Notes: generated from the sequence alone by a model not told the origin. Shown: positions 2,297 to 3,145, counted from the stretch's first letter. The stretch: 64,000 nt of DNA from Candidatus Eiseniibacteriota bacterium (GCA_005893165.1 VBOR01000061.1:36555-100554), one strand, 5' to 3'. A program made the numbers and translations.

Positions 2297-2701
2297 ATGA
2301 GCAACTCGAAAGGCTTCACGCTCATCGAGCTCATGATCGTCGTCGTGATCATCGGGATCTTGGCGGCAATCGCGATTCCGAACTTCATCGCCATGCAGGA
2401 CCGCGCACGCGAAGCCAGCGTGAAGGCGAACATGCATAGCTTCCAGCTGGCGGTAGAAGACTTCGCGGTCAAGAACACCGGGACGTATCCGGTGGCCGGG
2501 GACAACGCGGCCGTCCTGGCGAATCTGCCGAGCGGCAACTGGCCCAAGAATCCCTTCAGCGGCGCGAATGACGCTTGCACGTGGGCCGCGGATCCGGCGG
2601 CGCAGGGCATCTTCGGTGCGAACCCTTGTGCCACGACGGGCTACACGATCAAGGGTTTCGGCAAGACGGCGCTTCTGACGCTGACGCTGACCAACGGTTA
2701 G
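2297..2701 (+). CDS. pilA: Type IVa major pilin (PilA), copy 1
   Basis: Class III signal: leader MSNSKG, then FTLIELMIVVVIIGILAAIAIP (Phe+1, Glu+5). C-terminal Cys...Cys pair (ACTW...NPCATTGY). ATG 2297 follows the RBS gaggagg. The track start at 2288 is a GTG. Confidence 0.9.
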   Translation: MSNSKGFTLIELMIVVVIIGILAAIAIPNFIAMQDRAREASVKANMHSFQLAVEDFAVKNTGTYPVAGDNAAVLANLPSGNWPKNPFSGANDACTWAADPAAQGIFGANPCATTGYTIKGFGKTALLTLTLTNG

Positions 2702-2737
2702 TCCCAGGAAGTGGCAGTTCCAACAAGGAGGAGAATC

Positions 2738-3145
2738 ATGTTCCGCAATCAGAAAGGTTTTACCCTGATCGAGCTGATGATCGTGGTTGTGATCATCGGG
2801 ATCTTGGCGGCGATCGCGATTCCGAACTTCATCGCGATGCAGGACCGTGCTCGTGAGGCGAGCGTGAAGGCGAACATGCATAGCTTCCAGCTGGCGGTAG
2901 AAGACTTCGCGGTCAAGAACACCGGGACGTATCCGGTGGCGGGCGACAACGCCGCCGTGCTGGCGAACTTCCCGAGCGGTGCGTGGCCCAAGAATCCGTT
3001 CACGGGCGCGAACAGTGCTTGCACGTGGGCTGCGGATCCGGCGGCGCAGGGCATCTTCGGTGCGAACCCCTGTGCCACGACGGGCTACACGATCAAGGGT
3101 TTCGGCAAGACGGCGCTTCTGACGCTGACGCTGACCAACGGTTAA
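2738..3145 (+). CDS. pilA: Type IVa major pilin (PilA), copy 2 (tandem paralog)
   Basis: Leader MFRNQKG plus an N-terminal helix identical to copy 1. The mature protein differs from copy 1 at only 4 residues. ATG 2738 follows the RBS aggagg. Confidence 0.9.
   Translation: MFRNQKGFTLIELMIVVVIIGILAAIAIPNFIAMQDRAREASVKANMHSFQLAVEDFAVKNTGTYPVAGDNAAVLANFPSGAWPKNPFTGANSACTWAADPAAQGIFGANPCATTGYTIKGFGKTALLTLTLTNG

Follow-up and report, generated by a model that had tools for sequence, protein, structure and literature searches.

A tandem pair of type IVa pilin genes in Candidatus Eisenbacteria, very probably an old pair kept alike by gene conversion

Background

Must two adjacent genes that encode nearly the same protein be young? 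The question is raised by a 64,000-nucleotide stretch of DNA (GCA_005893165.1, VBOR01000061.1:36555-100554; the whole of this stretch is referred to as the window) from Candidatus Eiseniibacteriota (hereafter Candidatus Eisenbacteria), in which two pilin genes, pilA1 and pilA2, stand in tandem within a type IV pilus (pil) locus. An initial annotation of the window had read the pair as a recent duplication with diversification of an exposed patch, or as dosage tuning. Taken as a whole, that interpretation was partly supported. The analysis described here indicates that the two genes are very probably an old tandem type IVa pilin pair, carried in an operon controlled by PilS, PilR, and sigma-54 and kept alike by concerted evolution. 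Their near-identity would thus be a matter of repeated short conversions, in both directions, that overwrote old divergence, and not of youth.

The general elements were already known, namely tandem pilin paralogs, sigma-54/PilR control, and conversion among pilin copies. Beyond these, this is a first description of the main pilin locus in Candidatus Eisenbacteria, an uncultured soil phylum for which a literature search (Eisenbacteria and pili) returned nothing beyond incidental mentions. The locus also provides a clean natural case of bidirectional conversion between two expressed-type pilin genes, in which donor, recipient, and tract limits are legible from metagenomes. More broadly, near-identical tandem genes are not necessarily young; here, synonymous sites and population data point to an old pair held alike by conversion.

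Results and discussion

Two complete pilin genes with nearly identical products

The two genes are adjacent and co-directional, as initially annotated, and lie 36 nt apart (Table 1). The predicted prepilins begin MSNSKG/FTLIEL (PilA1) and MFRNQKG/FTLIEL (PilA2), and both leaders run into FTLIELMIVVVIIGILAAIAIP, as expected of the class III signal and alpha-1 helix of a type IV pilin. Each protein has the basic leader of 5 to 7 residues ending in Gly, the mature Phe, and the Glu at +5 that define a class III signal, and the Pfam N_methyl scores of the two pilins (40.2 and 43.4 bits) are well above the curated cut-off of 21.2. From the Lys-Gly that precedes the cleavage site onward, the proteins differ solely at L77F, N81A, S88T, and D92S (pilA1 prepilin numbering, used throughout; the mature pilin has 128 residues), exactly the four residue differences, besides the leaders, that had been noted initially. 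The mature pilins thus share 124 of 128 residues (97% identity), and their alpha-1 helices are identical. The four replacement codons fall within 16 codons (P = 0.005 over all codons, P = 0.023 when restricted to the globular part) and involve multi-nucleotide changes.

At the DNA level the two genes are 91% identical (35 of 393 positions differ), and 24 codons differ synonymously in addition to the four replacement codons. These numbers change the meaning of a near-identical protein pair.

Exact matches to both proteins were found in NCBI records TMQ49089.1 and TMQ49090.1, which come from a Candidatus Eisenbacteria metagenome-assembled genome (MAG) and are neighbors on one 106-kb contig. Both are labeled 'type II secretion system protein', which is a generic label. 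Identity as GspG, the major pseudopilin of the type II secretion system (the NCBI and JGI label), was considered and rejected given the absence of a T2SSG domain and neighbors of the pil rather than the gsp type; at E ≤ 0.01, N_methyl alone was matched among Pfam families in PilA1 and PilA2, and the T2SS_G domain was not found.

Table 1. Positions of the pilin genes, the tracts within them, and the associated features in the window
Feature	Position (nt)	Strand	Description
pilA1	2297..2701	+	134-aa type IVa prepilin, leader MSNSKG
pilA2	2738..3145	+	135-aa type IVa prepilin, leader MFRNQKG; NCBI TMQ49090.1; N_methyl 1.9e-11
Unconverted divergent tract, pilA1 (L77, N81, S88, D92)	2497..2587	+	pilA2 counterpart 2941-3031; holds 19 of the 35 nucleotide differences
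Strain-specific conversion tract in pilA2, donor pilA1	2861..2940	+	80 nt identical to pilA1 2417-2496; minimum bounds 2881-2926, maximum bounds 2861-2940
3' tract of pilA1, copy-2 ancestry	2588..2700	+	112 of 113 nt identical to pilA2 3032-3144
Sigma-54 (-24/-12) promoter consensus	2209..2224	+	TGGCATGTCCGTTGCT; TGGCAT-N5-TTGCT; 73 nt before the pilA1 ATG
Spacer	2702..2737	+	36 nt; pilA2 ribosome-binding site AAGGAGGAG 6 nt before the ATG
Intrinsic terminator after pilA2	3161..3207	+	15-bp G+C-rich hairpin and T-run; -29.1 kcal/mol, z -2.95
pilS-like sensor histidine kinase gene, 3' part	11..628	+	cut by the window start; HATPase_c 1.7e-29
pilR-like NtrC-family sigma-54 activator gene	654..2033	+	459 aa; Response_reg, Sigma54_activat 6.3e-67, AAA_lid_14, HTH_8

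A mosaic of saturated and identical tracts

Between pilA1 and pilA2, nonsynonymous divergence (dN) was 0.0245 and synonymous divergence (dS) was 0.346 by the Nei-Gojobori method (NG86), which gives a dN/dS of 0.07 (0.03-0.07 by other methods). This divergence is distributed in blocks. Mature codons 1-35, the 5' helix-coding tract, differ synonymously only (dS 0.89, dN 0), codons 36-60 are identical between the copies (dS 0), codons 61-92 are again divergent (dS 0.90, dN 0.10), and codons 93-128 are nearly identical (dS 0.03). When codon columns were shuffled, the two longest identical tracts together had P = 0.0007. Such a mosaic of saturated and identical tracts argues for gene conversion between old paralogs and against a young duplicate.

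Related loci were collected by scanning soil metagenome contigs (JGI, ENA) with the globular part of PilA1 as the query, which yielded 79 loci; six conspecific contigs were added by exact-protein look-up, and every pilin gene was extracted. Individual loci are labeled with L and a number. Conversion was called from segment-wise identities, variable-site patterns, and tract-length permutation.

The strain-specific tract can be seen by comparison with three conspecific loci (L082, L161, and L163), whose pilA1 genes are 99-100% identical to that of the window at the DNA level. In these loci, pilA2 is 91% identical to pilA1 within the conversion segment and differs from it at mature nucleotides 123, 128, 135, 139, 141, 156, and 168; the pilA2 of the window carries the pilA1 state at all seven sites. 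The same tract also removed differences at residues 49 and 53. The 3' segment of pilA1 (segment S4) has the opposite history. In the window this segment resembles copy 2 of L085 (96% identity) and L092 (94%) more than copy 1 of the same two loci (85% and 81%, respectively), which points to an older conversion in the other direction. In the central tract, by comparison, each window copy is nearest to the same-position copy of other lineages.

Further exchanges are visible among close relatives. The central patch of pilA2 in L160 has turned to the pilA1 type (L, N, and D, with T kept), so that three differences remain in that pair. Among sequences at least 90% identical to those of the window, 12 combinations of the four variable residues were found, including the recombinants FASD, FATD, and LNTD of the parental types LNSD and FATS. 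In seven related loci (L083, L086, L087, L134, L108, L143, and L152) a single pilin gene is followed directly by a terminator, and in some of these single-copy loci the leader is of the copy-1 type although the patch is of the copy-2 type or mixed (L086, for instance, has MLNSKG with F-A-T-D). These chimeras are consistent with collapse of a pair by unequal exchange. Recombination tracts between the copies, which the initial annotation had proposed to look for in population data, were thus clearly present (L082, L161, L163, L160, L085, and L092), and the marks of concerted evolution (mosaic tracts, differences between strains, and a switch of ancestry between paralogs) were all found.

Age and distribution of the pair

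Tandem pilin copies were present in 25 DNA-distinct loci representing 22 distinct protein pairs, recovered in different projects and with different assemblers, and on all six conspecific contigs. In most tandem loci, including all of the closest relatives of the window, copy 1 encodes 134 residues with the leader M-x-[ND]-S-K-G and copy 2 encodes 135 residues and begins with MFRNQKG or, in some cases, MIRNQKG; MLQNEKG/MLRNEKG leaders occur in a more distant sub-clade. Given that these paralog-specific leaders are kept in lineages with pilins 77-91% identical to those of the window, the pair is older than the split of these lineages.

The number of residues by which the two copies differ is typically 13-15 and ranges from 3 to 28 over the 22 distinct pairs. 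The copies are told apart recurrently at positions 70, 74, 77, 79, 81, 82, 88, 92, 94, 103, 106, 112, 124, and 128. Of the 22 pairs, 21 differ at position 77, 19 at position 92, and 15 at each of positions 81 and 88; in many other lineages, copy 1 and copy 2 are distinguished by the same residues as in the window (copy 1/copy 2: L or M/F at 77, N/A at 81, S/T at 88, and D/S at 92). Since the four sites of the window are among the most recurrent paralog-discriminating sites, they represent an ancestral remnant and no new gain. The window pair itself would be among the most homogenized members of this series.

At loci of more distant clades (L116, L109, L135, L137, L148, and L158), the two tandem copies agree in length, at either 127 or 129 aa, and have nearly the same patch, which suggests either concerted evolution or independent duplications. 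Tandem arrays of two to four family pilins were also common in MAGs of Eisenbacteria and Krumholzibacteriota and occurred in those of other groups, at no more than 70% identity among the matches listed. These arrays came from a genome-contig scan with the family alignment (N-terminal-helix patterns), in which only distant relatives were among the matches listed; the array sizes among them include four copies (L011) and three copies (L054), with further arrays in L006, L026, and L065. In several MAGs (L003, L028, L029, and L010) the pilin gene lies at a contig end, which suggests that assemblies break at these pilin repeats.

The 90% protein cluster of pilA2 at NCBI contains near-identical pilins from MAGs labeled Dormibacteraeota, Binatia, and 'Candidatus Angelobacter' as well as Eisenbacteria. 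These mixed taxon labels probably reflect binning contamination of short contigs; transfer is the other possibility.

Selection and predicted structure

Across all tandem pairs, dN/dS between the paralogs was 0.04-0.21. Copy 2 has changed less from lineage to lineage (amino acid identity 0.954 versus 0.921 for copy 1; median dN 0.030 versus 0.063). Because it is both conserved and constrained, pilA2 is judged to be functional, neither a silent cassette nor a decaying duplicate, and both pilin genes look functional. The idea of pilA2 as a silent donor cassette was also rejected on its structure, as the gene is full length, has its own leader, start codon, and ribosome-binding site, and is conserved. 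The survival of copy-specific residues through repeated conversion suggests that the two proteins are not fully interchangeable, and the stretch from residue 77 to 92 is indeed where the paralogs are kept different across lineages.

The structure of the pilin was modeled with AlphaFold2. A first model, built on a shallow alignment of 75-98% identical sequences, was discarded (predicted local distance difference test score, pLDDT, 65.7); widening the alignment with a 55%-identical subfamily gave a model with a pLDDT of 87.0 and a predicted template modeling score (pTM) of 0.72. This model has the pilin fold, with a long alpha-1 helix (residues 9-59) on a small antiparallel beta-sheet (strands 106-111, 116-121, and 126-131), a short helix at 67-76, and an irregular stretch with beta-bridges at 77-105. 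All four variable residues are placed in the irregular loop region that directly follows the alpha-beta-loop helix, a region that in solved type IV pili usually faces outward on the filament.

The initial annotation had also described C-terminal disulfide loops shared by the two copies. Cys94 and Cys111 are indeed the same in both (pilA1 codons 2576-2578 and 2627-2629), but they are no family trait. Among 91 distinct related mature pilins, 61 have no cysteine, 21 have one, and nine have two. The consensus residues of the family are W (position 94) and A (position 111); most relatives have W or A at 94 and A, S, or C at 111 (C111 alone in 18 of 76). The family therefore shows no conserved, disulfide-bonded C-terminal D-region, and a C94-C111 disulfide is possible as a lineage-specific feature. 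Such a D-region is not universal among type IVa pilins, and membership in this group is not excluded by its absence.

Expression signals

A sigma-54 promoter directly upstream of the first copy only, a strong ribosome-binding site of its own for the second, and a terminator after the pair had all been annotated initially, and all three held up (Table 1). The promoter site is a perfect match to the consensus; for the strict sigma-54 pattern, 0.03 matches would be expected in the 64-kb window, and two were found. Of 24 related loci whose sequence extends far enough upstream, 22 have the site at a fixed distance before copy 1, whereas it was found in the inter-pilin spacer of none of 25 related loci and was also absent from the spacer of the window. 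When the latter was searched for an internal promoter or attenuator, no sigma-70-like or sigma-54 site was found, and RNA structure in the spacer was not significant (fold z -0.05). Both pilA1 and pilA2 are preceded by a strong ribosome-binding site.

Proposed history and function of the pair

From the sequence signals and their conservation, a single transcript would run from the PilR-dependent sigma-54 promoter before pilA1 to the terminator past pilA2. With a ribosome-binding site and a class III leader each, both prepilins would be made, cleaved by PilD, and fed to the same machine. Conversion in both directions would erase the divergence between the genes, at least two tracts having been homogenized in the window strain; what remains would be the 5' helix-coding tract, with synonymous differences only, and the central tract with its four ancestral residues. 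Unequal exchange between the copies would also produce the single-copy chimeric genes of related strains. The pilSR neighborhood and the sigma-54 promoter support PilA1 and PilA2 as putative main filament subunits. Given their identical alpha-1 helices, 97% identity, and shared operon, the most likely outcome, favored at somewhat better than even chances, would be that PilA1 and PilA2 polymerize into one mixed, heteropolymeric pilus. Separate filaments are possible.

Several points weigh against this account. It is an inference that the genes are co-transcribed, that pilA2 is translated, and that either protein is built into a filament. The data are metagenome assemblies, and some mosaics could be chimeras of co-occurring strains; in answer, the same haplotypes were recovered in independent samples, and the tandem order is constant. 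The lineage-specific indels shared by both copies in distant clades could reflect independent duplications there. Finally, two distinct pili are made from two pilins with the same machine in Thermus (PMC7203116).

Alternative explanations

Of the alternatives, the one that survives best, though it is unlikely, is that copy 2 serves mainly to lift pilin output and that homogenization is favored as the products are equivalent, in line with the dosage tuning proposed initially. The pairs of the window strain and of L160 differ at merely four and three residues, the two genes have strong ribosome-binding sites in one operon, and a single copy suffices in related lineages. However, copy-specific residues and the copy-2 leader have been kept among lineages whose orthologs have diverged to a dS of about 0.4-0.6, and copy 2 is the slower-evolving gene, neither of which would be expected if the products were interchangeable; most pairs, moreover, differ at 13-15 residues.

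Slightly less credible is a variation system, in which two cassettes of expressed pilins would be shuffled to give surface variants selected by pilus-specific phages or predators in soil. Several independent two-way conversions among closely related contigs, the 12 or more four-site combinations with recombinants of both parental types, and the greater variability of copy 1 would fit such a system. Yet two cassettes offer a tiny repertoire, the net effect is homogenization and not diversification, and the exchanges proceed at evolutionary rates, between strains rather than within a clone. In addition, pilA2 is complete and conserved rather than a silent, 5'-truncated cassette, and no specialized recombination element turned up, although no search was aimed at one. 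It is doubtful to the same degree that, in this soil Eisenbacteria clade, conversion is itself the selected trait, reshuffling the surface patch (residues ~70-112) and sometimes collapsing the pair to a chimeric single gene. If so, populations would thereby evade pilus-specific phages or predators, and a non-pathogen would have its own equivalent of Neisseria pilin variation, working between two expressed genes.

The interpretation first offered, a tandem duplication of recent date after which an exposed patch diversified adaptively (under pressure from phages, receptor binding, or predators), is now very improbable. It would account for the clustering of the four replacements, their multi-nucleotide codon changes, and their position in the loop region of a confident model. 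The duplication, however, is not recent, given a dS of 0.35 over the full comparison that rises to about 0.9 within the two unconverted tracts, and the pair with its paralog-specific leaders is conserved across lineages 77-91% identical. Nor are the four differences a product of diversification in this strain; the same residues part copy 1 from copy 2 elsewhere and hence predate the window strain, which makes them a relic subset of the ancestral paralog-discriminating sites. The initial annotation had itself held that a dN/dS well below 1, with the variable residues at buried positions, would speak against it, and the ratio is indeed low, 0.07 overall and 0.11-0.18 within the patch.

An assembly artefact, in which two strain alleles of one pilin gene were falsely joined in tandem, can be practically dismissed: the frequent position of family pilins at MAG contig ends does mark the locus as hard for assemblers, but the tandem order, the distinct leaders, the unique spacer with its ribosome-binding site, and the unique flanks recur in 25 DNA-distinct loci, and TMQ49089.1 and TMQ49090.1 are neighbors on a single contig.

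Comparison with known systems

The working model for the window pair follows Streptococcus sanguinis, in which PilE1 and PilE2 are assembled by one machine into one mixed type 4 pilus (PMC6497953, PMC10628169; PDB 8pfb). As in the window, two adjacent, closely related, full-length major pilin genes lie in its pil locus. A mixed filament of this kind is proposed for the window pair, which differs at 4 of 128 residues. Thermus thermophilus PilA4 and PilA5, by contrast, are no near-identical tandem pair; the two proteins differ widely, and each forms a filament of its own with its own function (PMC7203116; PDB 6xxd, 6xxe).

With Neisseria pilE/pilS, the locus shares the non-reciprocal transfer of short tracts that results in mosaic pilin genes, with variable tracts in the globular part (PMC4023411, PMC4534519). 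In Neisseria, however, the donors are silent, promoterless, and 5'-truncated, and pilE alone receives sequence from them, frequently and within a single clone (PMC4023411, PMC4534519). Both window copies are complete and conserved, transfer between them goes two ways with net homogenization, and events are seen between strains only; neither pilA1 nor pilA2 has the make-up of a Neisseria-type silent cassette.

A locus with a pair of related pilins, each predicted as a major pilin, is also reported for Legionella pneumophila (PilA1/PilA2) and Xylella fastidiosa, with function partitioned or neofunctionalized between the paralogs (PMC13170364, PMC9956873). Unlike the window pair, these paralogs are clearly diverged, and in Legionella PilA2 alone was found in pili (PMC13170364, PMC9956873). 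No near-identity or conversion mosaic comparable to that of the window was found described in the abstracts of the Legionella and Xylella reports.

Surrounding pil cluster

The pilins are genetically linked to a type IVa pilus machine and its regulators. The gene order in the window is pilS-pilR-pilA1-pilA2-ABC (ATP-binding cassette) transporter-pilD-minor pilins ... pilMNOPQ, which is Myxococcus-like. The pilS orthologue is full length on conspecific contigs, with 6TM_PilS, PAS, HisKA, and HATPase_c domains, and pilR is likewise called as 459 aa there. Downstream of the pilins are genes for an ABC ATPase, an ABC-2 permease, an open reading frame (ORF) without assigned function, a prepilin peptidase, and a GspH/FimT-like minor pilin, followed further on by pilM, pilN, pilO, and the PilQ secretin with an AMIN domain. 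The genes pilB, pilT, and pilC are not within the window and presumably lie upstream of its start.

In Myxococcus xanthus the cluster reads pilS-pilR-pilA-pilGHI (ABC transporter)-pilD ... pilMNOPQ (PMC6060248), the same gene order, with pilA adjoining pilSR. In Stigmatella aurantiaca, two tandem pilA genes in the cluster have been read as a duplication (PMC6060248, PMC3776727). The proteins themselves are unlike those of the window. Myxobacterial PilA is longer (about 215-221 aa) and its globular domain is large, and similarity within the S. aurantiaca pair is only about 70%, compared with 134 and 135 aa and 97% identity in the window, which belongs to a different phylum. Similarity to M. xanthus PilA (8tj2) was limited to the N-terminal helix (query residues 7-57).

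The ABC ATPase gene (pilH-like, 3317-4181) lacks 160 bp that are present on conspecific contigs, with the junction at 3385/3386. In L160 the encoded protein is 341 aa long and contains the Walker A motif GPNGAGKT; in the window the deletion takes out this motif, and the reading frame is lost after MSQERDESRRRPSWMAGIKPRHA. The gene is either a true pseudogene of this strain or misassembled. Between the minor-pilin genes and pilM, a 753-aa ORF on the minus strand (7520-9781) has many predicted hydrophobic stretches and no Pfam match.

Two more sigma-54 -24/-12 consensus sites were noted in the cluster. The first, TGGCACAGGACTTGC (3253-3267), is found about 107 nt beyond the stop codon of pilA2, immediately ahead of the ABC ATPase gene, and 19 of 25 related loci conserve it; the second, TGGCATGGAACTTGCT (10005-10020), lies directly before pilM. 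The entire pil cluster may be a sigma-54/PilR regulon.

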